Assembly (NCBI GenBank): GCA_017625155.1
Contig: JAGALP010000004.1
Span: forward strand, 288,414 to 352,413
Source of the DNA: Paludibacteraceae bacterium
GTDB taxonomy: Bacteria; Bacteroidota; Bacteroidia; Bacteroidales; Paludibacteraceae
Direction: 5' to 3'
DNA length: 64,000 bases
Program-made: the position numbers and the translations under genes
Shown: piece after piece, positions 32,477 to 60,070 of the stretch
Position numbering within the stretch: the first letter of the stretch is position 1
Layout of the letters: every line of letters starts with the position of its first letter
The notes under the pieces: model-generated
Seen by the model: only the letters and a program-made list of their open reading frames with translations
Databases searched by the model: none
Told to the model about the DNA's origin: nothing

Positions 32477-34120
32477 ATGAAACACCTATTATTAGGCGAT
32501 GAAGCCATAGCGCAAGGCGCTATTGATGCAGGATTGAGTGGCGTGTATGCTTATCCAGGCACGCCATCTACTGAGATTACTGAGTATATACAATTGAGCG
32601 AAAAGCGAAAAGGCGATGAGGCGAAAGACAAGATTTTTTGCCAATGGGCTACCAACGAGAAGACCGCTATGGAAGGCGCACTTGGTATGTCCTATATGGG
32701 CAAGCGCGCGCTTGTGTGCATGAAGCATGTGGGCATGAATGTCTGCGCGGATGCGTTTATGAATGCCGCCATCACGGGCGTGAACGGCGGATTGGTAGTA
32801 GTGGCAGCGGATGACCCATCTATGCACTCCTCGCAAAACGAACAAGACTCGCGCTTCTATGCTAAGTTTGCTATGATCCCATGCCTCGAACCAAGCAACC
32901 AACAAGAGGCATACGACATGATGCACTATGCCTTCGACCTCTCCGAATCATTGCGCACACCTATCTTATTGCGCGTGACTACGCGCATGGCGCATTCGCG
33001 TGCGGTGGTCGAGACAATGGACACTCCTCGTGAGCAAAATGAGCTATCTGCGCCTGAAAATACCAATCATTTTATTCTTTTGCCTGCTTTCGCACGTAAG
33101 AACTACGCCGAACTTGTGGATGCACAAGCCGATTTTATTCAAACGAGTGAGGAGTCGCAATACAACCAATATACCAAAGGCAGTAATCCGAAGAAAGCCA
33201 TTGTGACGACTGGTATTGCGTATAACTACCTGATGGAGGCTATAGGCGAAGCATCCAATACCCATTATCCATTATCCAATAGCGAAGCGTCCATCCTTAA
33301 GATTACCCAATACCCATTACCAAAGGCATTGATCGATCAGATGGTAGCGGATGGAGCAGAAGAGATTCTTGTTATGGAGGAGGGACAGCCCGTAGTGGAA
33401 GAACTATTGCGCGGTATGGTGCCATCTTCTGTGGCTGTCAAAGGCCGATTGACGGGCGACCTCCCTCGCATGGGCGAACTCACACCCGATAGCGTCGCCC
33501 TCGCCTTATCCAATAGCGAAGCGTCCAATAGCCCATTGCCTATACCCGAACTAGTCGTCGGTCGTCCACCTGCATTATGCCAAGGTTGTGGTCACCGCGA
33601 TATGTATGCTGCGCTCAATGAGGTGGCACGCGAACATGAGAATGCCAAGATTTTCGGCGATATAGGTTGTTACACCTTGGGTGCATTGTCGCCTTTCCAT
33701 GCTATCCACGCTTGTGTGGAGATGGGTGCGAGTATCACTATGGCGAAAGGTGCTGCTGATGCAGGACAGTTCCCTTCGTTTGCGGTGATTGGCGATAGTA
33801 CGTTTACGCATTCGGGTATGACGGGATTGCTGGACTGCGTGAATAGCAAGGCGAATGTGGTAGTGCTGATTTCTGATAACCTCACTACAGGTATGACTGG
33901 CGGACAAGACTCTGCGGGTACTGGCAGACTGGAAGCTATCTGCGAGGGATTGGGCGTAGAGAAAGAGCATGTGCGCGTGGTAGTGCCACTGCCAAAGAAC
34001 ATGGAAGAGATCAAACAAGTGCTCCGCGAGGAGGTGGCTTACAACGGCACCAGTGTTGTCATTGCCCGCCGTGAGTGTATCCAAACTCTCAAACGCCACC
34101 TTAAACAAAACAAGAAGTAA
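32477..34120 (+). CDS. iorA: indolepyruvate ferredoxin oxidoreductase subunit alpha
   Basis: ..GDEAIAQGAIDAGLSGVYAYPGTPSTEI.., TPP-binding ..GDSTFTHSG.., Cys cluster ..CQGCGH... Confidence 0.9.
   Translation: MKHLLLGDEAIAQGAIDAGLSGVYAYPGTPSTEITEYIQLSEKRKGDEAKDKIFCQWATNEKTAMEGALGMSYMGKRALVCMKHVGMNVCADAFMNAAITGVNGGLVVVAADDPSMHSSQNEQDSRFYAKFAMIPCLEPSNQQEAYDMMHYAFDLSESLRTPILLRVTTRMAHSRAVVETMDTPREQNELSAPENTNHFILLPAFARKNYAELVDAQADFIQTSEESQYNQYTKGSNPKKAIVTTGIAYNYLMEAIGEASNTHYPLSNSEASILKITQYPLPKALIDQMVADGAEEILVMEEGQPVVEELLRGMVPSSVAVKGRLTGDLPRMGELTPDSVALALSNSEASNSPLPIPELVVGRPPALCQGCGHRDMYAALNEVAREHENAKIFGDIGCYTLGALSPFHAIHACVEMGASITMAKGAADAGQFPSFAVIGDSTFTHSGMTGLLDCVNSKANVVVLISDNLTTGMTGGQDSAGTGRLEAICEGLGVEKEHVRVVVPLPKNMEEIKQVLREEVAYNGTSVVIARRECIQTLKRHLKQNKK
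33244..33295 (+). repeat. in-frame short-repeat insertion 1 in iorA (CCAATAGCGAAGCGTCC family)
   Basis: GGC GAA GCA TCC AAT ACC CAT TAT CCA TTA TCC AAT AGC GAA GCG TCC ATC. The 22-mer TTATCCAATAGCGAAGCGTCCA (33272-33293) recurs at 33506-33527. Confidence 0.8.
33505..33547 (+). repeat. in-frame short-repeat insertion 2 in iorA
   Basis: CTT ATC CAA TAG.. read in frame as L S N S E A S N S P L P I P. Contains the 22-mer repeat plus TCCAATAGCCC, which is shared with the ALDH gene. Confidence 0.8.
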
Positions 34121-48003: not shown

Positions 48004-48999
48004 TCAGTTGTGCAATGTGATGACGGTTATTTCTGCGGGTACGCCGAGGCGGATGGGTAGGGTGCAACCAATGCCAGTGTTGATGTAGAGGGATTGATCC
48101 TCTAATTGGTACCAGCCCTCTGATTCGGTGAACATAAGTGAGGAGAGAGGGTAGCCGAAGAGGCGCACTTGTCCTGCATGCGTGTGTCCGCTGAGAGTCA
48201 GCGGAATATCGGTAGTAGGTACTACCTCTCCTCGCCAATGCGATGGGTCATGAGAGAGGAGGATTTTGAGAGGCGATGAGGCGATAAGGCTATCAGGCAA
48301 GGTCATCGCCTTTGGCAAATCTCCTCGGGAGGTAGTCTGAAATCCTTGTCCCTGACAAGAGGTATTATCCACGCCAATGATTTGCAGGTGTGCGGTGTCG
48401 CGTGAAATGATATACGACTGATTGCGAAGCAGATGCCAACCCAACGTGTCGCGTTGGTAGGCGGTTAGTTGGTTGACTTTTTCTTCTTTCTGTTCATCGG
48501 TTAGCCTGTGGTGGTAAAGTGCAAAATCGTGGTTGCCGAGTACGCTCGTGATACCATTTTTGGCATGCAGTTGGCGGAGCATATCCGTGAACGGAATAGC
48601 TTCTTCTACACCAAAGCCCACGAAGTCGCCCGTAAAGCAGATAAGGTCGGGTTGTTGAGCATTAATCGTATCTATTACGCGTTGCAGGAATGCAGGATTG
48701 TCGGCAAATGAGGATAGGTGCAAGTCGCTGATATGTACAATCTTATATCCGTTGAAAGCAGCGGGTACATGGGGCGACGTGTATGTGGTAGGTTGCACAC
48801 GCAGTTGGAAGCGTCCGAACCAATAGCCATAAAGCATAGTGCCTATGAACAGCAGTACGAGTGCAAGTCCTGTATAGGCAAAAGGTGCATACGGCATAGC
48901 ATGATGACACAGCCGTGCCACTATCCAACAGAGTAGCCATACTAGGGTAGGGCAGAGGAATAGCACTACGATGCAGAATATGAAGAAGGATATAAACAT
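48004..48999 (-). CDS. membrane-anchored metallophosphoesterase (YkuE-like)
   Basis: ..HISDLHL.., ..FTGDFVG.., ..GNHD.., ..SGHTHAGQ.. motifs. ATG 48999 lies 5 nt after the -7 box; the ORF-track TTG start at 49017 falls inside the promoter. Confidence 0.75.
   Translation of the reverse strand: MFISFFIFCIVVLFLCPTLVWLLCWIVARLCHHAMPYAPFAYTGLALVLLFIGTMLYGYWFGRFQLRVQPTTYTSPHVPAAFNGYKIVHISDLHLSSFADNPAFLQRVIDTINAQQPDLICFTGDFVGFGVEEAIPFTDMLRQLHAKNGITSVLGNHDFALYHHRLTDEQKEEKVNQLTAYQRDTLGWHLLRNQSYIISRDTAHLQIIGVDNTSCQGQGFQTTSRGDLPKAMTLPDSLIASSPLKILLSHDPSHWRGEVVPTTDIPLTLSGHTHAGQVRLFGYPLSSLMFTESEGWYQLEDQSLYINTGIGCTLPIRLGVPAEITVITLHN
48268..48302 (-). repeat. in-frame short repeat (GGCGATGAGGCGATA family) inside the phosphoesterase gene
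   Basis: Plus strand GAGAGGCGATGAGGCGATAAGGCTATCAGGCAAGG encodes LPDSLIASSPL. The 16-mer AGGCGATGAGGCGATA is also at 49250-49265. Confidence 0.75.
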
Positions 49000-49056: not shown

Positions 49057-49083
49057 GAGGTGATGAGGCGATGAGGTGATGAG
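49057..49083 (-). repeat. intergenic 8 bp tandem words (GAGGYGAT x3) of the same family
   Basis: GAGGTGATGAGGCGATGAGGTGATGAG directly flanks the terminator hairpin. Confidence 0.7.
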
Positions 49084-49156: not shown

Positions 49157-50110
49157 TTAGAAATTGGTGAGTGATTGTCCCATAGTGTTGTAGGTTTTGC
49201 CGTCGCGGATAATCAGCAATTGACCATTATGGACAACTTTTTGGCTATTAGGCGATGAGGCGATAGGGCTATTAGGCAAGGCTGTATCGGTCTTGTCGAA
49301 ACGGATTGCTATATCGTCATAAGCGAAATAGGCAGGTGCGTTGAGTCCCCATTGTCCGTAGAGGTCGAGCGTACCAACGATATTAAACGCTACGGCATTC
49401 ACTTCACCCAAGACTGACAGATCCCATTTTTGCCATGTGGTGACCACGCTATCCTTGCCATTGTAGAGGGCAAAAGTAGTGCGACTGATCTCGTGGCCAT
49501 TGGCATCTTGACCTACGGCTATGGCGTACAACTTGGTTGTATCGTTGGCAGGAGGATTATAGCCATCGCCGTACACCAAAGAGTTCAGCACATAGCAGAT
49601 GTTGGTGATATACATGTGGTCAATCACACGAGCCTTGCCGTCGGCAAAGGCGATAGTCTGCATTGAAGTATAGTCTGCATTGTAATCATCTACGTGACCG
49701 TTGTGTACGCAGAAGTTTTTTGAGCCGTTGTTGCCGCCATGGAGAGTGGCAAATTGGAGTTCGTACCATGCGGTATTGGCAGGTAGGTCGTTGTTGGTGT
49801 AGCCAGGGTTTGTGAAGTTGGAGATGGCATGTCCACCATTCCAGTAAGGAGCTGTGAAACTGTGGGTTAGCAGAGTGTTTTGTGCGTCGCACCATGTGTA
49901 AACGCCGCCTGCCGTGTAGGTGAGTGTGCCGTTGTACTGCGCATCGTCTACGAGATCCGACCAGGTGGAGATGGTCTTGTTGGCATACTCGAGGGTGTAG
50001 GGCGTGAAGTGCGCATCTGCGTCCTCGAAAGTAAGGGTTCGTAACTCGTAGTCCTGTGCAAGGGCTACATTAGCAAGGCATAATGCCGCAAGAAAAATAG
50101 ATTTCTTCAT
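49157..50110 (-). CDS. secreted DUF4465-like protein with C-terminal sorting-like motif; controlled by a cobalamin riboswitch
   Basis: Signal peptide ..ANVALAQD. Motifs ..WNGGHAISN.., ..WQKWDLSVLGEVNAVAFN.., ..NAPAYFAYDDIAI.. resemble DUF4465 (from memory). C-terminus ..VVHNGQLLIIRDGKTYNTMGQSLTNF. Confidence 0.5.
   Translation of the reverse strand: MKKSIFLAALCLANVALAQDYELRTLTFEDADAHFTPYTLEYANKTISTWSDLVDDAQYNGTLTYTAGGVYTWCDAQNTLLTHSFTAPYWNGGHAISNFTNPGYTNNDLPANTAWYELQFATLHGGNNGSKNFCVHNGHVDDYNADYTSMQTIAFADGKARVIDHMYITNICYVLNSLVYGDGYNPPANDTTKLYAIAVGQDANGHEISRTTFALYNGKDSVVTTWQKWDLSVLGEVNAVAFNIVGTLDLYGQWGLNAPAYFAYDDIAIRFDKTDTALPNSPIASSPNSQKVVHNGQLLIIRDGKTYNTMGQSLTNF
49243..49281 (-). repeat. in-frame short repeat (GGCTATTAGGCGATGAGGCGATAGGGCTATTAGGC) inside the DUF4465-like gene
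   Basis: Encodes ALPNSPIASSPNSQ. Internal 11 nt direct repeat GGCTATTAGGC; shares a 16-mer with 48271-48286 in the same reading frame (IASSP). Confidence 0.75.
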
Positions 50111-50149
50111 GTTGGTTTGTTGTTTAAAGGGTTAATATTATTTGCTCGT

Positions 50150-50211
50150 TTCTCTCGCTGAGGCTATCAGAGCACCCCAAAAATCAGCAGATTTTTCGGG
50201 GCCCCCGCTGG
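50150..50211. repeat. copy 1 of a two-copy structured element (AGAGCACCCC-AAAA..hairpin..TTTT-C-GGGG-N-CCCCGCTGG)
   Basis: 11 bp stem 50175-50185/50190-50201 with bulged C; upstream segment 50153-50161 is complementary to the hairpin centre. Compare 56755-56825. Confidence 0.7.
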
Positions 50212-50238
50212 CTATTAGGCGAGAGGCGAAAGGCAATG
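50210..50238 (-). repeat. intergenic member of the GGCTATTAGGCGA..GGCGA family in the 5' leader
   Basis: GGCTATTAGGCGAGAGGCGAAAGGCAATG abuts the structured element. Confidence 0.6.
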
Positions 50239-50496
50239 TATTAACCACACCTCCCTGACCATCTACTTCGGATTTTCCCAAATGCGAAGTAACATGGCAG
50301 GTTGATGGTCAGGGGTGTGTGGATAGGCGTTTTGACTCCCGAGAAACACACTGACCATTGGATACAACAAACGGGTGTTTGACCAAACTGTCAACCACCT
50401 ATACGCGTATATGCGTACCATAGATACTATTGAAAACCTTTGCGTCATGTCGTTGGCTCGATTCCCCGAGAGCGTTCAACTTCACCAACTCCTCGT

Positions 50497-50680
50497 TGGT
50501 GGCACGCAGCAGGTCTTCTGACTTATCGCTCCTTTTGTTCAGCCTTCCCAGCTTTGTCAGTTGACAGTTGATAGTTGACAAATGACAGTCAGCCAGTGAC
50601 TTATAAGATTTTGAACATCGGATTGCGAATCACAGCAGCGGGACTGTGCAGGATTCTCACCTGCTTCCCTTGACTGAATG
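50497..50680 (-). promoter_or_regulatory. cobalamin (B12) riboswitch
   Basis: Minus strand reads ..AAGGGAAGCAGGTGAGAATCCTGCACAGTCCCGCTGCTGTGA..GTCACTGG..GCTGGGAAGGCTGAAC..GATAAGTCAGAAGACCTGCTGCG (B12 box). Begins ~7 nt after the -7 box. Confidence 0.85.
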
Positions 50681-50685
50681 CGGTG

Positions 50686-50693
50686 CAAAGGTA
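50686..50693 (-). promoter_or_regulatory. Bacteroidota -7 promoter box TACCTTTG (riboswitch transcript)
   Basis: Immediately upstream of the riboswitch 5' end. Confidence 0.55.
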
Positions 50694-50714
50694 CTACTAA
50701 TTTTTGATATATGC

Positions 50715-50746
50715 AAGAAAAATCGCTTTTTGGGGCGATTTTTCTT
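50715..50746 (-). terminator. intrinsic terminator after the CWC gene
   Basis: AAGAAAAATCGC-(8 nt)-GCGATTTTTCTT, a 12 bp stem with a T-rich tail inside the stem. Confidence 0.65.
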
Positions 50747-50819
50747 ATAGGTATGCCGCTTATGAGCGAAGTTACGCGCCTGCGGCGGGTGTTGTCGGCT
50801 TTGCCGAAGTTGTGTGCGC

Positions 50820-50993
50820 TTAGACAGAAAACTCCAATAGGCACTTTCGGCAAAGGCATTGGTTGGGGTATTGCTCTGCGATATAAGCACGGGTGGCGGG
50901 AGAGAGCAATACACCTGCACATTGACACTTGGCGGGATTTTCGTGTTGGCAAATAAACGTAGCTCCACAGCGCGGACAAGATTTGTGTTCCAT
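50820..50993 (-). CDS. 57 aa cysteine-rich small protein (CWC-like)
   Basis: Not in the ORF track: MEHKSCPRCGATFICQHENPAKCQCAGVLLSPATRAYIAEQYPNQCLCRKCLLEFSV. CxxC..C..CxC..CxC..C pattern; followed by a terminator. Confidence 0.55.
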   Translation of the reverse strand: MEHKSCPRCGATFICQHENPAKCQCAGVLLSPATRAYIAEQYPNQCLCRKCLLEFSV

Positions 50994-51004
50994 AGTTGCT
51001 TGAG

Positions 51005-51592
51005 TTACCTATCCCATGATTTGTGTTTGTCGGATTCGGTTATGGGGCGGACGGGACGGCAAGGGTTGCCCACGGCTACTACATTGTCGGGGATGTCTTT
51101 TATTACCACAGAGCCACCGCCAATGACTACATTCGAACCAATCTTCACGCCTGGCATCACATGTACACCTGCTCCAATCCATACATTATCGCCCACTGTG
51201 ATGGGGTAGGCATACTCCAAACCTTGATTGCGGCGGTCAGCATCAATAGGGTGACCAGCGGTGTAGAAACCACAGTTGGGAGCAATAAACACATTATCGC
51301 CAAAAGTGACTTTGGCACCATCCAAAATGACGGTATTATGGTTGGCGAAGAAGTTTTTACCAACTTCGATATTATAGCCATAATCGCACCAAAAAGGTGC
51401 CTGAATGCAGCAGTTATCGGATTTCTTGCCTAATAGTTGGCTGAGAATCTGCTGTTGGTTGGTCTCATCGGAGGGACTTAGTTGGTTGAACTGGTAGCAC
51501 AAGTCTTTAGCTACTTGACGCTCACGAATGAGTTCGGTATCGTAGTTCGCATCGTACAGCATCTGCTGTTGCATTTTTTCTTTTTCGGTCAT
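51005..51592 (-). CDS. maa: maltose/galactoside O-acetyltransferase (LbH)
   Basis: Mac N-terminal domain ..MLYDANYDTELIRERQVAKDLCYQFN.. plus hexapeptide repeats ..VGDNVWIGAGVHVMPGVKIGSNVVIGGGSVV... Confidence 0.85.
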   Translation of the reverse strand: MTEKEKMQQQMLYDANYDTELIRERQVAKDLCYQFNQLSPSDETNQQQILSQLLGKKSDNCCIQAPFWCDYGYNIEVGKNFFANHNTVILDGAKVTFGDNVFIAPNCGFYTAGHPIDADRRNQGLEYAYPITVGDNVWIGAGVHVMPGVKIGSNVVIGGGSVVIKDIPDNVVAVGNPCRPVRPITESDKHKSWDR

Positions 51593-51611: not shown

Positions 51612-51619
51612 CAAAGGTA
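51612..51619 (-). promoter_or_regulatory. Bacteroidota -7 promoter box TACCTTTG
   Basis: 20 nt upstream of the maa ATG at 51592. Confidence 0.55.
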
Positions 51620-51641
51620 GTGCTTTTTGGGGATATGTGCA

Positions 51642-51671
51642 AGAAAAATCGCCTTGGAGGGCGATTTTTCT
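51642..51671 (-). terminator. intrinsic terminator after the FGE-domain gene
   Basis: AGAAAAATCGCC-CTCCAA-GGCGATTTTTCT (minus strand), a perfect 12 bp stem. Confidence 0.7.
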
Positions 51672-51732
51672 TGTTGCGTGAATAGACTTTGTGCCTATTC
51701 TTTGGTATTTTTTGGTTGAGAGCAGGTTTAGA

Positions 51733-53319
51733 CTACTCGTTTTCAACAAGGACAAGGCGCAAGCCGATATAATCATGTCTGTCTGCATGATTCGTCTTAC
51801 AGCGATACCCCACACGGCAGAATCTTGAGCCGTCGCCACTTGAAATCTTCCATCTGCCACCACGGGTTATACGGAATATGTTGTCTTCAGATTTAGGACC
51901 TATAGGGTCGGTCTTTGGATCTGCGGTATAGGTATAATAATAGTCATGGCACCATTCCTCGACATTACCACTCATGTCGTACAATCCCAATTCGTTCGGC
52001 TTTTTTCCTTTCACTGGTTGAGAGTAAGGTAAATCCTGTTCGCCTTTTATACTGTACCATGCCACATCGTTTGCTATATCGCTACCTGCAAAAATATATT
52101 CTTGCTTCATCTTATGCCCACCACGAGCAGCATACTCCCATTCTGCATTAGTAGGCAAACGGAAGGTTCTGCCGTTCAGTTGGTCTGCCAGTAGTTGATT
52201 CAGTTTAGTGACAAATTCTTGGCAATTGTCCCAATTTACCGAATCTACGGGATGTTGCTCATAACCATCACCATTGAATCCACTTGGATTGGTACCCATC
52301 ACTGCCTTCCACAACTCTTGCGTTACTTCGGTCTCGCCAATATGGTAATCGTATGTCAAGGTTACTTGGTGAGCAGGTTTATCATAGTTCGAATGTGTTA
52401 TGTCTAAATCGTCTTGGAAATCCTCTTGCTTTTGTGTTGCTCCCATCGTAAACGTACCCCCTTTTACCGCTATCATCCTAAACGATACCCCATTCGCGGT
52501 GAAGGATTTTATATTGACATCTTGCTCTGGCATAGCCACTGCAGAACCATCGAATGACACATTACCTGTTTTTTCAAATGTATTGAGAATGGTGGAGTTA
52601 TCCTCTGCATACACATCCACCCTAAAGCCAGAAGGCCAGTTGCCTTTAGGAACAACGATATAGAATAAGGTGGAAGCATCTTCTGTGAGGGTAACGTCGG
52701 TGCATGTGAGGGTGTAGGTCTTGCTATCAGCAGGGTTGGTGAGAACAATCTTGCTCAAGGCATCTGAACCTTTCAGTTGCAAGCCCAATAGCGTGTGTTG
52801 TGGAACAAGGGTAAATCCTCCGTCGATCGTACCGTTTTCTGCTGTCATCTTCATAAGCCCCTTGCCAAAACCGTTTTCTACATAGGTTTGGTTGCTGAGG
52901 TCGGGCTCTTCAACGGGGTATTGTACGCTGAAGTCGGTTCCGTCAGCAGGCATGATGCCCTTGAATGTGGCTTGTGCTGTACCAGCGCCACTTTGCAACG
53001 TAAACTCCGCGGTCTTGTCGCCTACTTTTACGAGAATCACATCGTCTGCGTCCCAAGTGAGGTTGATTGTTGTGCCTTCATCTATGCCCGACACGCGTTG
53101 TTTGCCTGGGAGTTGTTGTGCGCCGTTATTGCCTGCGTTAGGCATTTGGGCGGAAATGGTTACTTCCTGACCTGCCTTGAAAGGTGTGCCTATTTCTGGT
53201 GCCACCATACTTATGCTATCCACCTTGATGACATTGCCATCACTACAATAAATATAAAACTGTGCTGAAGCACTAATTGTCATCATCAAGGCGATGACTG
53301 CCATAAAAAGCTTTTTCAT
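51733..53319 (-). CDS. secreted protein with N-terminal beta-rich domains and C-terminal formylglycine-generating-enzyme (SUMF1/FGE-sulfatase) domain
   Basis: Signal peptide; ..FRMIAVKGGTFTMGAT.., ..HQVTL..Y.IGETEVTQELW.., ..FRLPTNAEWEYAARGG.., ..LYDMSGNVEEWC.., ..RGG.W.. FGE-family motifs. Confidence 0.8.
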   Translation of the reverse strand: MKKLFMAVIALMMTISASAQFYIYCSDGNVIKVDSISMVAPEIGTPFKAGQEVTISAQMPNAGNNGAQQLPGKQRVSGIDEGTTINLTWDADDVILVKVGDKTAEFTLQSGAGTAQATFKGIMPADGTDFSVQYPVEEPDLSNQTYVENGFGKGLMKMTAENGTIDGGFTLVPQHTLLGLQLKGSDALSKIVLTNPADSKTYTLTCTDVTLTEDASTLFYIVVPKGNWPSGFRVDVYAEDNSTILNTFEKTGNVSFDGSAVAMPEQDVNIKSFTANGVSFRMIAVKGGTFTMGATQKQEDFQDDLDITHSNYDKPAHQVTLTYDYHIGETEVTQELWKAVMGTNPSGFNGDGYEQHPVDSVNWDNCQEFVTKLNQLLADQLNGRTFRLPTNAEWEYAARGGHKMKQEYIFAGSDIANDVAWYSIKGEQDLPYSQPVKGKKPNELGLYDMSGNVEEWCHDYYYTYTADPKTDPIGPKSEDNIFRITRGGRWKISSGDGSRFCRVGYRCKTNHADRHDYIGLRLVLVENE

Positions 53320-53327
53320 ATTGTTGA

Positions 53328-53729
53328 TTATTTTAATAAGTTACCTAACACATCGTACCAAACTTGTTTACCATCAGGCATCATGGTACGGATAAATAAT
53401 TTACCATTAAACAAAACTTTGTCTGTTGTGGCTTTGTCCAAAGACGATACTTCTTCCAGAGAGGTTGTCGTATTATCTTTCTCCACCATGGCGAAAGTGA
53501 TACAGCGAACACCCGTCACTTCTGCCTCGGGCACACTCACAGCAAGACTCCCCTTGCTGCATAACACACTGAAGTCCGTTACCGAAGTGTAGTCCAATCG
53601 CACCACTTGCTCCGTACCATCTGTCATTTGCACCACCATCGCGGGGACAAGTTCGGCATCCTGAGCAAAAACGGGCATGCTTACACTACATAAGAATAGA
53701 CTTAGTAGAGATAAGAATAACTTTTTCAT
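53328..53729 (-). CDS. small secreted protein with C-terminal sorting-like motif
   Basis: Signal peptide ..SMPVFAQD; C-terminus ..KVLFNGKLFIRTMMPDGKQVWYDVLGNLLK. Confidence 0.5.
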   Translation of the reverse strand: MKKLFLSLLSLFLCSVSMPVFAQDAELVPAMVVQMTDGTEQVVRLDYTSVTDFSVLCSKGSLAVSVPEAEVTGVRCITFAMVEKDNTTTSLEEVSSLDKATTDKVLFNGKLFIRTMMPDGKQVWYDVLGNLLK

Positions 53730-53767
53730 ATTCGTTTTCTTAATTCAAAATTCTTAATTCCAAATTA

Positions 53768-53908
53768 TCACCAAGTTCCAGTTGATTTGCCAATGGATTC
53801 GAGATTGCCTTTTGGAGAGATGTAACTTGGTCCACCTCCAGATGCACAGAGGATAGCGGTTTCTACTTGCAACACTTGTGTGTTGGGAGTTTGATACGTT
53901 TTTTTCAT
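53768..53908 (-). CDS. 46 aa small ORF (candidate leader/precursor peptide)
   Basis: Not in the ORF track: MKKTYQTPNTQVLQVETAILCASGGGPSYISPKGNLESIGKSTGTW. First ORF after the leader terminator; 38 nt upstream of the next gene. Confidence 0.4.
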   Translation of the reverse strand: MKKTYQTPNTQVLQVETAILCASGGGPSYISPKGNLESIGKSTGTW

Positions 53909-53953
53909 TGTTTTACAGTTGTTTTATGGGTTAATATTATTTTTGCTATACAT

Positions 53954-54002
53954 AAAAAAACACGCCATTATTGTCTTCACGAACATAGACAACAATGGTG
54001 TG
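53954..54002 (-). terminator. intrinsic terminator-like hairpin inside the 5' leader (candidate attenuator / riboswitch expression platform)
   Basis: Minus strand: CACACCATTGTTGTCT-ATGTTCGTGA-AGACAATAATGGCGTG followed by T7; 46 nt upstream of the small-ORF ATG. Confidence 0.6.
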
Positions 54003-54418
54003 TAACGTACATAGGCGCGCTTTGCGCCACGATAGCATATCGGCTGACTACCTCCCCCGCCAGGACTGTGTTCGTGTGTTACAGCACACATTTTCACGCT
54101 ATTATGCGCATGCCGAAAGCCCCTGCCAATCTCCATTGGCTGCTGCATTATGATGCTATGTGGGAAGTAGTTATACATAATACAAATAGTGTACAAAAAT
54201 TGTGCCAAAACCTGACGCAAGAATGCGAAGGAAGTACACAATAGGTACAAAGCGCCAGTTTAGTGTACGGCACAAAGTGCCTAGTGTTTATAGATTAGGG
54301 AGTCGGGACACGCTAGACGAGACACCGTCGAGCGTTGAATATGTAGCAACACCGTTAAGCACTGGATAGAACTGTATAATTAGTTATCGTGTTTTTTTTA
54401 GTCGCTCTTGATAAACAA

Positions 54419-54453
54419 CGCTACTCTTGCGTGAAGGTAGCGCAAGAGTAGCG
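54419..54453 (-). terminator. terminator hairpin, member of the CGCTACYCTTGCGCTACCTT family
   Basis: CGCTACTCTTGCG-(9 nt)-CGCAAGAGTAGCG, a perfect 13 bp stem; 35 nt after the stop of the 54488-55795 gene. Confidence 0.65.
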
Positions 54454-54487
54454 AAAAAAGTTATTACTATTTGTTGACTCTTAGGTC

Positions 54488-55795
54488 TTACAAGAGGACA
54501 TACTTATTTTTATCAGGATTAGCAATATCTTTTTGTACATGCCATATTTTTATTCGCGCATTGTCCCAACCGTTATTGTTGATTATGCGTAGTTTACGTA
54601 ATTCTACAGTTTGTTTTTTTGCTTTTTTATTGGTATCATAAACATTTTGGGCTGCTTGTTTGATATATGTAGCATAATCACGTGGCATAACTGCTTTTTT
54701 ATCTGCCAATCTCCACGAATCTTTTGTCTTAACAACATCAAATGTGAGTGTTTCTACTTGAACACTATAAGATTCGGATAGATATTGCTCCAAACTACAT
54801 GTTCGCTGCGTATTAGGTTCTGTTACTGTTGCGATTTTTAAGATGCCTTTGACCAATAAATCGGAAATCAACGAAGCTACCGTATCTTTCTCTCCATCTG
54901 GAACTTCTACATAAAATTCACTTTCAGGAGGAATGCTTACATACAATTTTGTTTTTTCCTCCAACTTTAACATATCGTTCAAGATCATTTGCGTGTAGCG
55001 TGATTCTTCCAAATCAAGGAATAACTTGTGAATTAAATTTGCTGCTTCAGGATTTTCCTTTGAGAGTTTTTGCGGTTTAAGATTACTTACAAACTGTTGA
55101 TATTTTCTTTCAAGTTCTGCTTTTCTTTCCGCTTCTGCATATGCTTCGTACTCTTGTTTTGATACTTCTTTTATTTCATTAGTAGATATGAAGTTTGCTA
55201 TTCGTTTTATGGTAGGTGTATCGTTATCCCATTTGCCAAACGAAGCAATCTCTCCATATTTTGTCCAGTATGAAAAGTCGGTAATAGTCTTAACTTTATT
55301 TAGCTTCACAACTGTGGACTTAGTCATTTTGACAGCTTTTTGTATCACACTTTTCCCTTTATTGTTTTTATACGAAACATATACCCATTCGGATTTACAT
55401 TCGTATTTATCTCCTTTGTTATATTCTATCCATGTATTTTGCTTTGAAGGTAATTTCAAAATGGTTATTCTGTCATTCCTTCTGCTTTCACCCAAGAAAT
55501 TTGAGTATAGTTGTCCTGTACTAATAACCGCATCGTCGGAAATATCATAAGCATATATTGTTATGGTACTTCCCATTGGATAACCATTTTGGTCGGTCAT
55601 ACGAAGTTTTTCTTGTATAACTCGTTCCCAACCACGAGAACTAACGATTATTTCTAACTCTTGAGGAAAATCTGACTCAGGAAGCCAAGTGTATTCTTGA
55701 GAATACTTAGGGTAGAAATAGTCGCTTACTTTTTCTTGTGCTTGAATAGCCAATGTAAGAATTGCACTAATGACTACAAATAGTATTTTTTTCAT
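54488..55795 (-). CDS. hypothetical secreted protein (low-GC islet)
   Basis: 435 aa; signal peptide ..LTLAIQAQE; central Lys/Glu-rich coiled segment; no recognisable enzyme motifs. About 30-38% GC against ~50% in the flanks, by eye. Confidence 0.6.
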   Translation of the reverse strand: MKKILFVVISAILTLAIQAQEKVSDYFYPKYSQEYTWLPESDFPQELEIIVSSRGWERVIQEKLRMTDQNGYPMGSTITIYAYDISDDAVISTGQLYSNFLGESRRNDRITILKLPSKQNTWIEYNKGDKYECKSEWVYVSYKNNKGKSVIQKAVKMTKSTVVKLNKVKTITDFSYWTKYGEIASFGKWDNDTPTIKRIANFISTNEIKEVSKQEYEAYAEAERKAELERKYQQFVSNLKPQKLSKENPEAANLIHKLFLDLEESRYTQMILNDMLKLEEKTKLYVSIPPESEFYVEVPDGEKDTVASLISDLLVKGILKIATVTEPNTQRTCSLEQYLSESYSVQVETLTFDVVKTKDSWRLADKKAVMPRDYATYIKQAAQNVYDTNKKAKKQTVELRKLRIINNNGWDNARIKIWHVQKDIANPDKNKYVLL

Positions 55796-55927
55796 GTTAT
55801 TTAAGAATTTAAATTGCCTACTCTTTGTCGGATTTTCGGCATACTCCGTGTTTTAAGTGTTTGATTTATTGTTTATTAATTGGATTTTATATACATACAA
55901 AAAGCGTGAACTTTCGTTCGCTTCAAT

Positions 55928-56063
55928 TTGATTCTTTGAGGTTCTCGACTACCTTATTTACTCAAATCTACGCACGGAAAACTCACGCTGTTAACGCGAG
56001 CGTGCATAAACCGTACTTGAGTAAATAAAGATTTTTGAAAGTGTCGAGTTTTCAAAGAATCAA
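55928..56063. repeat. 136 bp extended imperfect palindrome (three matched arm blocks plus nested central hairpin)
   Basis: TTGATTCTTTGA/TCAAAGAATCAA (55928-39 / 56052-63), CTCGAC/GTCGAG (55944-49 / 56043-48), TTATTTACTCAA/TTGAGTAAATAA (55954-65 / 56017-28). Confidence 0.85.
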
Positions 56064-56164
56064 GTCTGGGCTTATAACGCTATATTAAATATGTTGGGCA
56101 ACGGTATCGTTGCGGGATTAACTATAAACTATGAGTGATGAGTTATAAGTAATTTAGAGGGTAG

Positions 56165-56506
56165 TTATAAATTAATATCTAATAAATGTCCTATAAGTTG
56201 GTTATTTGCTAGATATACAATACTATATACTTCTTCTAATTCTTCATAAAAAGCATACCAAGTGGTATGTGCGTTTTTACGGTAGCGAACATAAAACAGT
56301 TGCTTGCCATCTACGCTATACCTATTGAAGTGTTCTGGTGCTTCAACAGAAACAGAGTTTTGCAGATTGAGCGCAAAATAGCGAAAGATATCACGCATAT
56401 AATCTACTGCGTAATCTTCGTCGCCAAAATATCGCTGCTCTACAAGTTTTGTAACACTTTCTTCAAATTGCAGAAGCACTTGTTCTGTATAAACAACTTC
56501 TTTCAT
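56165..56506 (-). CDS. putative RelE/ParE-like toxin
   Basis: 113 aa; N-terminal ..VVYTEQVLLQFEES.. and C-terminal ..WYAFYEELEEVYSIVYLANNQ.. resemble the ParE-fold pattern; ATGA-coupled to an upstream 45 aa ORF. Confidence 0.4.
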   Translation of the reverse strand: MKEVVYTEQVLLQFEESVTKLVEQRYFGDEDYAVDYMRDIFRYFALNLQNSVSVEAPEHFNRYSVDGKQLFYVRYRKNAHTTWYAFYEELEEVYSIVYLANNQLIGHLLDINL

Positions 56507-56640
56507 TTGAACATTGCGCGTATTCTTGGTTCAAGAAAAGCAACTGCCTCATCAGCAGTATAGTATTTCTTTTGTACATTGTTGACGCTTCCGCTCTCTG
56601 AGCCAAAAGGCATCTCTTGTGGGGTGCTTGAAGTTTTCAT
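56503..56640 (-). CDS. 45 aa ORF, putative antitoxin partner
   Basis: Not in the ORF track: MKTSSTPQEMPFGSESGSVNNVQKKYYTADEAVAFLEPRIRAMFK. Its stop overlaps the start of the 113 aa ORF (ATGA). Confidence 0.35.
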   Translation of the reverse strand: MKTSSTPQEMPFGSESGSVNNVQKKYYTADEAVAFLEPRIRAMFK

Positions 56641-56687
56641 CGCTGCTATTTTTATACAAAGATGAGTTTATTTTGACCTTTGCGGTG

Positions 56688-56695
56688 CAAAGGTA
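56688..56695 (-). promoter_or_regulatory. Bacteroidota -7 promoter box TACCTTTG
   Basis: 48 nt upstream of ATG 56640. Confidence 0.5.
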
Positions 56696-56718
56696 GTGCT
56701 TTTTTTTGATATATGCAA

Positions 56719-56745
56719 GAAAATGGCGAATTTTTCGCCATTTTC
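56719..56745 (-). terminator. terminator-like hairpin of the repeated terminator-promoter cassette
   Basis: GAAAATGGCGA-ATTTT-TCGCCATTTTC. Confidence 0.55.
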
Positions 56746-56754
56746 AGTTTAGAG

Positions 56755-56825
56755 GACGCTCGCGTGGCGAGCTACAGTTTAAGAGCACCCCAAAACGCCA
56801 CGAGCGTTTTCGGGGACCCCGCTGG
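56755..56825. repeat. copy 2 of the two-copy structured element
   Basis: AGAGCACCCCAAAACGC-CACGA-GCGTTTTCGGGGACCCCGCTGG; upstream 56757-56769 CGCTCGCGTGGCG is complementary to the hairpin centre. Confidence 0.7.
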
Positions 56826-57088: not shown

Positions 57089-57213
57089 TCGCGAAAATGT
57101 GCGTTTCGCGCTAATGGCAGGCGAATATGCGCGAAAAAACTGCTGAAAAACATGTTTTGAAGCTAAAAATCAAGAATTGAGAACAAAGACAAGGATTATA
57201 ACAAAGATTGATT

Positions 57214-57687
57214 ATGAAAAAATTGAATATCGCTTTGGTTGCTCATGATGCCAGAAAACAAGAATTGGTGAAATGGTGTACCTTTAATTCGTGTATTCTC
57301 AAACATCATAATTTATTTGCAACAGGTACAACCGGTAGTCTCCTTGCTGCTATTCCTGTAGATTCTGAAAACACCGAGTACCCCCTCAAAGATATTACTC
57401 TGCTGAAGTCTGGACCGCTGGGCGGAGATCAACAAATAGGTGCAATGATTGCCGAAGGGAAATTGGATGCGCTAATATTCTTTTGCGATAACCTCATTAC
57501 GCAAGGACACCAACAAGATGTGGGAGCACTAACACGATTGGCATCATTGTACAACATCGCATTTGCGACCAATCGCACAACAGCAGATATGATTATTACC
57601 TCTCCTCTCTTTGGCAACGAAGAGTATGAACGGATAATTCCTCTATCTATCAAATCATACGAAAATAGAAAATTAACATTAAAATAA
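57214..57687 (+). CDS. mgsA: methylglyoxal synthase
   Basis: ..IALVAHDARKQELV.., ..ATGTTG.., ..GPLGGDQQIGA.. MGS motifs. Confidence 0.9.
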   Translation: MKKLNIALVAHDARKQELVKWCTFNSCILKHHNLFATGTTGSLLAAIPVDSENTEYPLKDITLLKSGPLGGDQQIGAMIAEGKLDALIFFCDNLITQGHQQDVGALTRLASLYNIAFATNRTTADMIITSPLFGNEEYERIIPLSIKSYENRKLTLK

Positions 57688-57712
57688 ACATAATACTAAC
57701 TTTTCTAAAATC

Positions 57713-59602
57713 ATGGCAGAAGAAAAATTGAACATGTTAGCCGAGTTTCCCGCCATCTCTACCAAAGCATGGAAGGAGAAAATCGTAGCTGACCTCAAGG
57801 GCGCCGATTTCGACAAGAAACTCGTATGGCGCACCACAGAAGGCTTTAACGTACAGCCTTTCTACCGTCAAGAAGACCTCAAAGGTCTGAAAACTACTGT
57901 ATCTGCACCAGGTCAATTCCCTTACGTGCGTGGTACCAAAACCAACAACGAGTGGGCTATCCGCCAAAACATTTGCGCTTGCAAGAACGCTCGCAAAGCG
58001 AATGCAAAAGCGTTGGACGTCTTGAGCAAAGGTGTGAACTCGTTGGGCATCTGCTTGAACGCAGAGAAACTGACCTACCGCTACATCAAGACATTGCTTG
58101 AGGGTATCCAACTCGACAAAGTAGCACTGAACTTCAGCGTATGCGCTTGCAAAGCTCCTGCATTGGCAAACATCTTGGTTCGCCTCGTAGGACGCAGCGG
58201 ATATGACTTCAAAGCAGTGAAGGGTAGCATCAACGTGGACCCAATCAAGAACATGCTGCTCAAAGGCAAACCACTGAGCCGCGAGAAAGTAGCAGAGAAA
58301 ATCGTGGCTACCGTGAAAGCTGCTAAGACATTGGTGAACTTCCGCGTGGTAGGCGTGAACTCAGTAATCCTGAACAACTCAGGCGCATACTGCGCTCAAG
58401 AGTTGGCTTACGCATTGGCTTGGGGTGCTGAATACATGACCATGATGACTGAGGCTGGTTTGCCAAACTACTTGGCAGCTCGCGAGATCCGTTTCAACAT
58501 GGGTATTGGTGGTAACTACTTCATGGAGTTGGCTAAGTTCCGCGCTGCACGTCTGCTCTGGGCAAAGATCGTAGAGGCATACAAAGCTCCTATCTTCACT
58601 GCTGCATTGAAAGACGCTGCGAAGATGAATGTTTGCGCAGAAACAAGCCGCTTTAACATGACCATCTTTGATGCATATGTAAATATGCTTCGTACACAAA
58701 CAGAGACTATGTCTGCTGCATTGGCAGGTGTGGATGAGATTGTGGTTACTCCTTTCGACGCAACCTACGAGGTACCAACCGAGTTCGCAGAGCGTATCGC
58801 ACGCAACCAACAACTCCTACTCAAAGAGGAGTCACACTTCGACAAGGTGGTTGACCCAGCTGCTGGTTCATACTACATCGAGAACTTGACCAACGCTATC
58901 GCAGCTGAGGCATGGAAGCAATTCCTCGCTATCCAAGAGCAAGGCGGTATGTACGAGATGGTAGCCGCAGGTAAGGTACAAGAGGCAATGGCAGCTAACT
59001 TGAAGACTCGTTTGGCTGATGTGGCTAAACGCAAAGAGGTGTTGCTGGGTTCTAACCAATTCCCTAACTTCACCGAGAAGGCAGGCAAGAAGATCAAAGA
59101 GACAGGTTGTGGTTGCGGTTGCTGCAAGACCAAACCAGAAGGTGCTATCGCTACCTTGCCAGTGGCTCGCGCTGCTGAGGAGTTTGAGACCTTGCGTCTT
59201 GAGACTGAGGGTGCAAAGAAACAACCAGTGGCATTCATGTTGACCATCGGTAACTTGGCAATGCGTATTGCTCGTGCACAATTCTCTTGCAACTTCCTCG
59301 CATGCGCTGGTTACAAAGTAATCGACAACAATGGCTTCAAATCTGTGGCTGAGGGTATCAAGGCCGCTCGCAAAGCAAAAGCAGATATCATCGTACTCTG
59401 CTCAAGCGACGATGAGTATGCAACATACGCTCCACAAGCATGGTTGCAACTTGAGGATGCAAAAGAACTCTTTATCGTGGCTGGTGCTCCTGCTTGCATG
59501 GAAGACTTGCAAAAGATCGGTATCGAGAACTTTATCCACGTACGCGTGAACGTGCTCGAGACACTTAAGAAATTCAATGCTCAGTTGTTGAACAAGGAGT
59601 AA
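57713..59602 (+). CDS. mutA: methylmalonyl-CoA mutase small (beta) subunit
   Basis: 629 aa; ..PYVRGT.., ..ARNQQLLLKEE.., ..DPAAGSYYIE.. mutase-fold motifs; no DxHxxG B12 motif; lies upstream of mutB. Confidence 0.85.
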   Translation: MAEEKLNMLAEFPAISTKAWKEKIVADLKGADFDKKLVWRTTEGFNVQPFYRQEDLKGLKTTVSAPGQFPYVRGTKTNNEWAIRQNICACKNARKANAKALDVLSKGVNSLGICLNAEKLTYRYIKTLLEGIQLDKVALNFSVCACKAPALANILVRLVGRSGYDFKAVKGSINVDPIKNMLLKGKPLSREKVAEKIVATVKAAKTLVNFRVVGVNSVILNNSGAYCAQELAYALAWGAEYMTMMTEAGLPNYLAAREIRFNMGIGGNYFMELAKFRAARLLWAKIVEAYKAPIFTAALKDAAKMNVCAETSRFNMTIFDAYVNMLRTQTETMSAALAGVDEIVVTPFDATYEVPTEFAERIARNQQLLLKEESHFDKVVDPAAGSYYIENLTNAIAAEAWKQFLAIQEQGGMYEMVAAGKVQEAMAANLKTRLADVAKRKEVLLGSNQFPNFTEKAGKKIKETGCGCGCCKTKPEGAIATLPVARAAEEFETLRLETEGAKKQPVAFMLTIGNLAMRIARAQFSCNFLACAGYKVIDNNGFKSVAEGIKAARKAKADIIVLCSSDDEYATYAPQAWLQLEDAKELFIVAGAPACMEDLQKIGIENFIHVRVNVLETLKKFNAQLLNKE

Positions 59603-59653
59603 GGAACCAAGAACCAAGATAAATTACTAACGACTTAGAACTAGAAAAGGATA

Positions 59654-60025
59654 ATGCATAATTTCCGTAAACTTGACATATGGTCGGATAGTGTGGATCT
59701 TGCAGATACCATCTATACTGTGACAGAGGATTTTCCTCGTCACGAAGTGTATGGACTGGCTTCGCAAATGCAACGTGCTGCTGTATCCATTCCATCCAAC
59801 ATTGCAGAGGGATCGGGAAAATGCTCAGATAAAGATTTTGCGAGATTTTTAGGAATTTCTTTAGGCTCATTGTTTGAATTAGAAACACAGGTGGAAATTG
59901 CACATAGAAGAGGATATATAGGTACACCTATCTATTATAGTCTCAATACAACAATAACTTCCTTACAAAAGCGTGTGTTTATGTTCAGACAATCCATAGA
60001 AGATAGAATCTGCAAAACAAATTAG
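59654..60025 (+). CDS. four-helix-bundle protein (23S rRNA intervening-sequence protein / Avd-like family)
   Basis: ..LDIWSDSVDLADTIY..FP..EVYGLASQMQRAAVSIPSNIAEGSGK.S.KDFARFLGISLGSLFELETQ.. canonical family motifs. Confidence 0.85.
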   Translation: MHNFRKLDIWSDSVDLADTIYTVTEDFPRHEVYGLASQMQRAAVSIPSNIAEGSGKCSDKDFARFLGISLGSLFELETQVEIAHRRGYIGTPIYYSLNTTITSLQKRVFMFRQSIEDRICKTN

Positions 60026-60070
60026 TCTTGATTCCTTGTTCCTGGTTCTTGGCTCAAAAACAAGAAAGTT

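Follow-up and report, generated by a model that had tools for sequence, protein, structure and literature searches.

A hairpin of about 40 nt, which occurs twice in a 64,000-nt stretch of the Paludibacteraceae contig JAGALP010000004.1 (hereafter the window), is probably a selfish mobile element that resembles the repetitive extragenic palindromes (REPs), and a passenger at both of its sites. Each copy is a member of a dispersed family of imperfect DNA palindromes of 36–42 nt, probably of the same kind as REPs and Rickettsia palindromic elements (RPEs). Such a unit contains a CCCC/GGGG stem base, an A-tract/T-tract middle, a short variable apical stem, a loop of 3–5 nt and often a bulged C, framed by conserved unpaired flanks, CA at the 5' side and ACCCCG at the 3' side. 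An earlier reading of the letters alone (the sequence-only reading) had described a two-copy element. This holds within the window, but the family as a whole has more than 100 copies in many phyla.

Structure of the two window copies

Exact and near-exact searches placed AGAGCACCCCAAAA at 50169 and 56782, and the right block TTTTCGGGGNCCCCGCTGG, which is TTTTCGGGG-N-CCCCGCTGG, at 50193 and 56807. The right block has only these two sites in the window, where 0.01 would be expected by chance with up to three mismatches allowed. The two copies lie on the + strand at 50169–50211 and 56782–56825, 6.6 kb apart and with identical ends, so the shared flanks are where the sequence-only reading had put them. 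Its wider spans, 50150–50211 and 56755–56825, contain the element but also flanking sequence; the units proper extend from about 50170 to 50209 and from about 56783 to 56823 (Table 1).

The hairpin of copy 1 is composed of CCCC AAAA ATC / AGCA / GAT TTTT (C) GGGG, and that of copy 2 of CCCC AAAA CGC / CACGA / GCG TTTT (C) GGGG. Both copies form an 11-bp stem with the same bulged C, and between them two apical pairs are altered on both sides (A-T to C-G and T-A to G-C), in agreement with the two fully compensated base pairs described before. Both hairpins are predicted to fold stably, that of copy 1 on either strand. A covariance model built from family members scores copy 1 at 67 bits (E ~1e-14) and copy 2 at 59 bits (E ~1e-12). 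With filters off, the same model revealed no further copy in the whole 64-kb window besides these two. A third candidate at 11839, with one mismatch to the left flank, has no hairpin and was discarded as a chance match.

A hairpin family across distant phyla

The sequence-only reading had suggested that relatives be searched for more copies. A scan of one genome for each species, with GCACCCCAAAA-N(4-34)-TTTT-N(0-1)-GGGG-N-CCCC as the pattern, gave at least 118 loci with at least 125 exact matches, whereas about one is expected by our own chance estimate. A looser pattern, run on the listed loci and the window, gave at least 144 copies. All family counts (109, 133, 137 and 144 sequences or copies) and the host ranges below refer to the matches listed; single loci are cited by number.

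The family signature is (G)CA-CCCC-[A arm, loop, T arm]-(C)-GGGG-A-CCCC-G. At the position that separates GGGG from CCCC, also left free by the pattern, 131 of the 133 distinct sequences have A, and window copy 1 is the sole one with C, a variant common to the same-species contigs L120–L122. The base after the tag, also free in the pattern, is G in 115 of the 133, and the bulged C is present in 82. The centres of the two window copies represent the two commonest subfamilies (12 and 9 copies, in different species), and the centre of copy 2 occurs 12 times across the listed loci.

The hosts are mostly Paludibacteraceae and other Bacteroidales metagenome-assembled genomes (MAGs). The family also occurs in Nitrospirota, Xanthobacteraceae, Sphingomonas, Burkholderiales, Desulfarculus, Clostridia/Bacillota, Saccharibacteria and Troglogloeales, and at the level of phyla the spread covers Bacteroidales, Nitrospirota, Alpha-, Beta- and Deltaproteobacteria, and Firmicutes. 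One Nitrospirota MAG (JBBISG01) carries at least 10 loci, and many Paludibacteraceae MAGs carry several each. About 24 nt of the element are common to distant phyla. Among the listed loci, L024 and L045 are syntenic relatives of the window, and L120 is identical to part of it.

In an alignment of 109 distinct family members, the stem is paired in 93.8% of cells; these sequences were fitted to the covariance model, and the alignment therefore leans towards structure. Cells changed on both sides number 74, compared with 27 in shuffles, and none of 500 shuffles reached 74. The compensatory changes are concentrated in three apical pairs. The view of the sequence-only reading that the hairpin is under selection is thus supported by a stem maintained through compensatory changes in the two window copies and in more than 100 others. 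Its failure to match a known family also agrees with our search of Rfam 15, in which both window copies and a seven-unit array in L029 gave no relevant match at the gathering score or at E up to 10. A search of 2.9 million viral contigs returned a single match, on which a phage origin was rejected.

Gain and loss of a discrete unit

Comparison of filled and empty sites indicates that the element comes and goes as one block. The orthologous riboswitch leader in L045 reads ...GAGCTCATTA|GGCTATCAGG... and is empty, while the window and L024 carry 40 nt at the same point (GAGCACCCC...CCCCGCT). A Nitrospirota site is filled in L005, L006, L008 and L084 and empty in L098 (TCAC|TGCGAC). At the Paludibacteraceae hairpin GCGCGGCAATCAA|CTCCCTGCCGCGC, L048 and L011 have an empty site, L071 has a filled one, and L023 and L104 carry the insertion at a different position. 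Within 1 kb of L049, the GTAG-type REP GGGCGAGGCATGC|CTCGCCCCTAC is filled once and empty twice. The inserted blocks measure 36–42 nt, and apart from a 1-nt ambiguity the target is not duplicated.

The locus of copy 1 groups the window with L045 as sisters (90.3% identity), L024 being the outgroup (~80%), and the element is present in the window and L024 only. This distribution therefore requires either a precise loss in the L045 lineage or repeated insertion at the same point. Within the species both copies are fixed, and contigs at 99–100% identity all carry both, including the C variant of copy 1.

About a quarter of the copies are nested in older hairpins. The outer hairpins came first, because the empty sites already contain them. 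Flanks with at least 7 bp of perfect complementarity surround 27% of the listed copies, against 4% in permuted controls.

We also considered copying without a dedicated enzyme, by gene conversion or recombination among arrays of an 8-mer (AGGCGANN), or by template switching at hairpins during replication. This is unlikely, since array conversion cannot explain the same ends in phyla that have no arrays, and insertions are also found at array-free sites (a Nitrospirota repeat, the GCGCGGCA hairpin, an alphaproteobacterial REP and IleS). Several observations do point to it: GGCGA arrays lie on either side of about 20 listed Paludibacteraceae copies, the 8-mer arrays are more frequent in the window than expected (12 against 1.8) and variable within the species, the unit boundaries are slightly ragged, and no transposase was found in the listed loci.

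Copies between and inside genes

The intergenic copies among the matches listed show no preferred direction, with 18 co-oriented and 24 anti-oriented to their flanking genes. No replication-strand bias was detected with local GC skew as a proxy (p = 0.6). At least 60 open codons extend on both sides of 39 of the 144 listed copies, and at least 8 copies are in frame inside housekeeping genes (IleS, GlnS, GltX, LigA, SMC and others). The intragenic hosts confirmed by Pfam are IleS, LigA, GltX, GlnS, the SMC hinge, a serine dehydratase, a glutamine amidotransferase-domain protein (L101) and a histidine kinase. In IleS the element corresponds to residues 912–922, and in LigA to residues 494–503, between the OB fold and the zinc finger. 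The intragenic copies occur in both orientations in roughly even numbers and in several frames, and the encoded peptides include APQKSADFSGTP and SGVPEKSADFWGA. In IleS, GltX and LigA the insert would comprise 13–14 residues. An element of 40 nt can thus be common to distant phyla nearly letter for letter, and it can also be located within the genes of aminoacyl-tRNA synthetases, DNA ligase and SMC. In the protein alignments of MAGs such elements appear as odd peptide inserts, and in RNA-motif searches as spurious ‘conserved structures’.

Other copies form tandem arrays of two to seven abutting units with differing stems, and several arrays begin just past a stop codon. Neighbouring copies are direct or tandem in L010, L011, L026, L029, L033, L060, L093 and L117. 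In L026, L093 and L035 the arrays start within a few bases of the stop codon, in the sense of the upstream gene. Together with the stability of the hairpins and the reported action of REPs in this manner (PMC3733652), these arrays would suit an RNA-level function for the host, such as protection of mRNA 3' ends, transcript insulation or attenuation, by which the element would be maintained instead of by its own spread. However, equal numbers are antisense to the flanking genes, many copies lie in either orientation within coding regions, conservation of the strand-asymmetric tags does not depend on which strand is transcribed, and copy 2 is upstream of both of two divergent genes. We regard maintenance by such a function as decidedly unlikely.

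At one locus of a Nitrospirota MAG (L025, 130–225), two tandem copies of 41 and 42 nt, 83 nt in total and not a multiple of three, are located inside the ATPase domain of a histidine kinase. This tandem insertion may reflect a disrupted gene or an assembly issue.

Copy 1 in the cobalamin riboswitch leader

Copy 1 is located in the ~380-nt leader between a cobalamin riboswitch aptamer and the start of a DUF4465 gene, on the strand opposite to that gene. The sequence-only reading had proposed a switch or pseudoknot tied to the riboswitch. The aptamer is kept in L045 (86.4 bits) and in L024 (83 bits), and the L045 leader is otherwise conserved without the element. An expression platform would be conserved with its aptamer; the aptamer and leader of L045 are intact without these 40 nt. 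We found no terminator-like site in 49900–51100. The stem itself contains the T run, and the sequence after the hairpin is ACCCCG or, on the other strand, TGCTCT, which does not correspond to an intrinsic terminator. Because L045 and L024 keep the aptamer, L045 has no element and no terminator-like site is present, copy 1 is a passenger, inserted where an older hairpin of the leader has its tip, and no part of the riboswitch. A false lead is thereby removed: the hairpin in this B12 riboswitch leader is an insertion and does not belong to the switch.

Two other features of this region were noticed. A long near-perfect hairpin at 50240–50327, CCACACCTCCCTGACCATC...GATGGTCAGGGGTGTGTGG, shows almost no variation in L045 and L024. 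It may be the real expression platform; in Rfam it gave chance miRNA-like matches only. Inside the aptamer, at 50552–50592 (− strand), a 30-nt length polymorphism exists within the species. The window and L122 carry TGTCAAC-like units of ~8 nt in a peripheral aptamer loop, and L121 (98–99.98% identical) and L045 have an 11-nt loop.

The upstream complement

According to the sequence-only reading, a segment upstream of each copy is complementary to that copy's own centre and covaries with it as a third partner. We measured this complementarity by the local-alignment score of each centre against its own upstream flank, with permuted pairs as control. The scores of the window copies are indeed high, 6.5 for copy 1 and 8.0 for copy 2, and a score of 7 or more occurs in just 0.3% of permuted pairs. 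Over 137 listed copies, own-upstream scores average 4.17 and those of permuted pairs 3.96. Scores of 3 to 5.5 were obtained for the 21 other listed copies whose centre is identical to one of the two in the window. In L045, L088 and L007, the orthologues of copy 2 retain the centre next to a different upstream sequence. The proposed covariation of three partners is contradicted by these same-centre copies and orthologues, which have no upstream complement.

The two complements have separate origins. The upstream segment of copy 1 pre-exists in the empty site of L045, where it overlaps the 5' arm of an older host hairpin. The upstream complement of copy 2 is a small GTAG-tagged hairpin outside the element, which reads GTAG-CTCGC-CAC-GCGAG-CGTC on the minus strand. 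Its counterpart in L045, GTAGGCGCTTTGCGCCGTC (GTAG-GCGC-TTT-GCGC-CGTC), lies ~190 nt from the element, whose centre is unchanged. The GTAG tag is as described for REPs (PMC3733652), and this GTAG...CGTC hairpin probably represents a second, classical REP-like family in the genome. The hairpin, which in L045 is at ~2880–2900, is flanked by CAGTTTAGAGG direct repeats, and its stem in L045 differs by compensatory changes. The apparent three-way covariation is therefore accounted for by an older host hairpin at copy 1 and a neighbouring REP-like hairpin at copy 2. The outer stems were first read as a covarying RNA helix, which was rejected because the empty sites show that the outer hairpins were already there.

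These results bear directly on a cis-regulatory RNA, in which the hairpin and the upstream complement would constitute a switch or pseudoknot with the cobalamin riboswitch (copy 1) or control the neighbouring promoters (copy 2). Copy 1 does lie in a transcribed leader between aptamer and start codon, stable hairpins are predicted on both strands, and both window copies have an unusually good upstream complement. On the other hand, the complement is absent from all other listed same-centre copies and from the orthologues of copy 2, and L045 keeps the aptamer and the rest of the leader without the element. The orientation to genes is random with many copies inside open reading frames (ORFs), and neither an Rfam family nor a terminator-like site was found. 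This alternative has largely been refuted, and we consider it highly improbable.

Table 1. Positions of the two hairpin copies and of the features adjoining them in the window.
Feature	Position	Strand	Basis or remark
Copy 1 unit, GAGCACCCCAAAAATCAGCAGATTTTTCGGGGCCCCCGCT	50170..50209	+	40 nt; a 1-nt G ambiguity permits 50171–50210; absent in L045, present in L024
Copy 1 hairpin, CCCCAAAAATC / loop AGCA / GATTTTT, bulged C at 50197, GGGG	50175..50201	+	Sequence, folding, family covariation
Copy 1 unpaired 3' tag, CCCCC	50202..50206	+	ACCCC in 131/133 distinct listed family sequences
Copy 2 unit, GAGCACCCCAAAACGCCACGAGCGTTTTCGGGGACCCCGCT	56783..56823	+	Boundaries by analogy with copy 1; 59-bit model match
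Copy 2 hairpin, CCCCAAAACGC / loop CACGA / GCGTTTT, bulged C, GGGG	56788..56815	+	Sequence, folding
Copy 2 unpaired 3' tag, ACCCC	56816..56820	+	Sequence
Older host hairpin, 5' arm CTCTCGC	50152..50158	+	In L045 empty site; pairs with 50219–50225 in leader fold; overlaps the proposed complement of copy 1
Older host hairpin, 3' arm GCGAGAG	50219..50225	+	L045 empty site and leader fold
Separate small GTAG-tagged REP-like hairpin, GTAGCTCGCCACGCGAGCGTC	56755..56775	−	Proposed ‘upstream complement’ of copy 2; outside the element
Cobalamin riboswitch aptamer	50491..50693	−	Rfam, 75.9 bits
DUF4465 gene downstream of the aptamer	49157..50110	−	Pfam DUF4465

Comparison with known mobile and repeated elements

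Several behaviours of the family are already known for REPs (PMC3733652). REPs of the GTAG type, associated with the REP-associated tyrosine transposases (RAYT, TnpA(REP)), are likewise imperfect palindromes of 20–40 nt, dispersed and in high copy number. Their subfamilies also keep the stem by compensatory change and have conserved unpaired residues at the hairpin foot. They likewise form tandem clusters just after genes, and some copies are nested in palindromes or inside ORFs (all PMC3733652). REP super-families span phyla and are nested in palindromes (Di Nocera et al., 2013; PMC3733652), and REPs have been described inside uvrA, dnaE, ligase, tRNA synthetase and repair genes (PMC3733652). 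With its 11-bp stem, one bulge and units of 40–41 nt, the element is a short imperfect palindrome in the same sense, and it is dispersed in many copies per genome, with at least 10 loci in JBBISG01 and two in the 64-kb window.

In contrast, the 5' foot GT[AG]G of REPs is absent: the element has GCA at its 5' side, ACCCCG at its 3' side and CGGGGT on the other strand. Neighbouring copies are direct or tandem instead of forming inverted doublets. About 24 nt are common across phyla, not just a tetranucleotide. No RAYT was found beside any element copy in 119 sources, apart from a single Y1_Tnp-like ORF in L049 that has GTAG REPs on its flanks. The family therefore differs from classical REPs in the GTAG foot, the tag, the inverted doublets and the extent of cross-phylum sequence sharing.

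The CGTC REPs, which include RPE-4 and RPE-6 of Rickettsia, are closer in some respects. They also occur in several phyla including Bacteroidetes, with many copies intragenic and no dedicated transposase known for this super-family, and their stems likewise begin with A-T pairs and have a short unpaired 3' tail (PMC3733652). They differ from the element in their tags (CGTC...CCA versus CA...ACCCCG) and in their stems, which have 8–9 bp, whereas those of the element have 11–13 bp with a CCCC/GGGG base.

RPE-1 is roughly 100–150 bp long and is not known outside Rickettsia, in contrast to the ~40 nt and the several phyla of the element. What the two have in common is selfish palindromic DNA in frame in functional, often essential, genes, where it adds a short peptide (cited in PMC3733652).

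The ends of IS200/IS605 insertion sequences are also irregular hairpins with conserved foot bases, read on single-stranded DNA by a Y1 HUH transposase (PMC6006769). Excision and insertion of IS200/IS605 leave neither target duplication nor footprint (PMC6006769), which would fit the clean empty sites of the element. IS200/IS605 have two different ends and a fixed target tetranucleotide, whereas the element is one hairpin without a common target.

Integron attC sites, 57–141 nt long, likewise combine conserved ends and a variable centre, and fold as single strands into an imperfect hairpin that has extra-helical bases. In neither window copy nor its flanks can R''/R' core sites (RYYYAAC / GTTRRRY) be read, and, unlike attC, the element is found without cassettes and without an integrase. 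A MITE, a miniature transposable element of the inverted-repeat type, would have terminal inverted repeats matching an insertion sequence, a target duplication and a length of 70–300 bp. The unit of 36–42 nt is shorter, the ambiguity at its empty sites is 1 nt at most, and split ends around a gene were not found.

The window copies, 6.6 kb apart, do not form a CRISPR array, and the tandem units elsewhere abut with differing stems. We nevertheless weighed whether the element derives from, or mimics, the repeat of type VI-A CRISPR (Cas13a), which reads CACCCCAAAAAUGAAGGGGAC. The stretch CA-CCCC-AAAAA...GGGG-AC is in common, and the sole relevant-looking papers containing both CCCCAAAAA and TTTTTGGGG concern Cas13a CRISPR RNA. 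However, these common letters are of low complexity, and the Cas13a repeat combines a 4-bp stem with a loop of 9 nt and terminates in UAAAAC, a sequence not present in the element. There is no repeat-spacer array, and copies lie inside genes. No cas gene was seen in the inspected parts of the window and loci, although no systematic search was made. The resemblance of the family consensus to the Leptotrichia Cas13a repeat hairpin is judged a low-complexity coincidence, and a Cas13a origin has next to no probability.

Possible mode of spread

The sequence-only reading had named a recombinase or transposase recognition hairpin among its options. This option fits best a discrete, dispersed and strand-asymmetric insertion without orientation bias; the enzyme itself was not found beside the listed copies. 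Spread would take place at the DNA level, by an enzyme acting in trans that recognises the strand-asymmetric hairpin, together with its tags, in single-stranded DNA, in the way that RAYT/TnpA(Y1) HUH enzymes act on REPs and on IS200/IS605 ends. The apical stem would vary freely if only its pairing is read. We put forward this HUH step tentatively, by analogy with those enzymes, and with clearly less confidence than the REP-like character of the element. A mobilising activity of this kind, if found, would constitute a compact hairpin-recognising DNA insertion system.

A number of observations weigh against a mobile REP-like element. No Y1_Tnp-like ORF lies beside any copy in the 119 sources except in L049, a Xanthobacteraceae MAG, where the ORF scores 22 bits against a cutoff of 23. 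All-against-all clustering of ORFs in the listed loci revealed no gene family that recurs beside copies across phyla, and solo left or right (split) ends, the mark of an autonomous parent, were not found. Inverted doublets, the REPIN-like pairs, were not found among the listed loci. The filled/empty pairs show no common target sequence, and unit boundaries differ by 1–4 nt between events, which is not obviously expected of a site-specific HUH enzyme. The ~24-nt conservation across phyla exceeds that of classical REPs. Finally, movement is deduced from comparisons between species, and no polymorphism was seen within the species among contigs that are 99–100% identical.

The L049 locus deserves separate mention. 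At 4520–5440 a RAYT-like gene is flanked by two GTAG REP types, and the element is nested in the tip of one REP. This gene belongs to the surrounding GTAG REPs and not to the hairpin element. With its ORF as query, tblastn and phmmer searches of all listed loci and the window recovered only itself. The ORFs between copies in L117 encode SpoIIR or have no Pfam match.

A CGTC REP super-family without a dedicated transposase is on record (PMC3733652), and Quentin et al. described a TnpA subclass (2.6, RAYT group 5) that is rich in Bacteroidetes and has ‘atypical secondary structures’ on its flanks. No hairpin of the GGGGACCCC type appears in the REP tables of Quentin et al. (2018), a literature search by this string gave noise, and no earlier description of the family was found in a limited literature search. 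The family could conceivably constitute an undescribed third REP-like super-family beside GTAG and CGTC, an ‘ACCCC-tagged’ hairpin of ~40 nt with a preference for landing at the tips of existing hairpins, clean excision and in-frame tolerance inside essential genes, although we regard this as rather doubtful. It would keep ~24 nt from Nitrospirota to Bacteroidota, Proteobacteria and Firmicutes and would move as a single hairpin, not as an inverted pair. If true, it would imply a widely shared enzyme or host pathway that recognises single-stranded hairpins.

Copy 2 and variable regions of the window

Copy 2 is a passenger in a divergent intergenic region, upstream of both genes and adjoining a promoter-hairpin repeat. 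The sequence-only reading had proposed to check whether copies mark the boundaries of variable regions. L045 does not have a block of ~5 kb (51650–56686) in which an FGE-sulfatase gene, three ORFs without a Pfam match and a DUF805b RNA are located. The edges of this block are 61-nt promoter-plus-hairpin repeats (51612–51672 and 56688–56748), a third of which lies at 50686–50746. Copy 2 is ~35 nt from one border of this block, yet it is present in L045, which is without the block. The boundaries are thus those of the promoter-hairpin repeats, not of the element.

The nearness of copy 2 to this border, and the dyad symmetry of GGGG-N-CCCC, would be in line with a double-stranded site for a site-specific recombinase or DNA-binding protein that marks the borders of variable regions through the GGGGNCCCC palindrome. 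Such a role is extremely improbable, however, with the block bounded by other repeats, copy 2 present in the block-less L045 and copy 1 at no such border. The conserved flanks are asymmetric as well (CA versus ACCCCG), and the intragenic copies are hard to reconcile with it.

The DUF805b RNA motif (55815–55849, − strand, 45.8 bits) is just upstream of an ORF at 54488–55795 that has no Pfam match. The segment 56897–56990 contains four tandem 11-nt units of GAGGTTCCGAT, followed by ATAGGTGGCA-like repeats, and gives a weak sub-threshold match to pemK RNA (19.8 versus 34.8 bits). A segment of ~480 nt (57160–57690) with an MGS-domain ORF (57208–57687) is found in the window and L113 and is absent from L075 and L007. 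At 59584–60068, ~465 nt are absent from L007, L075 and L113, relatives at 96–97% identity. A 23S_rRNA_IVP gene (PF05635, 59654–60025) is located there between two methylmalonyl-CoA mutase genes, and inverted GAACCAAGAACCAAG motifs flank it. These inverted motifs, at 59604 and 60055, were first suspected to mark a MITE; the indel is the 23S_rRNA_IVP gene instead.

Tandem arrays of ~8-nt units (AGGCGATG / AGGCGAGA / GGCTATTA) account for the 12 window matches mentioned above, all but one on the + strand. They are located at 32604–32624, 48272–48292, 49059–49079, 49243–49271 and 50210–50230 (+), and also occur in L014, L043 and L012. Many Paludibacteraceae hairpin copies are embedded in such arrays. 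In genes of relatives, the arrays appear as (Q)SPIAN(S/C/T)Q peptide repeats, at three sites in IleS, in LigA and in an MBOAT-like protein.

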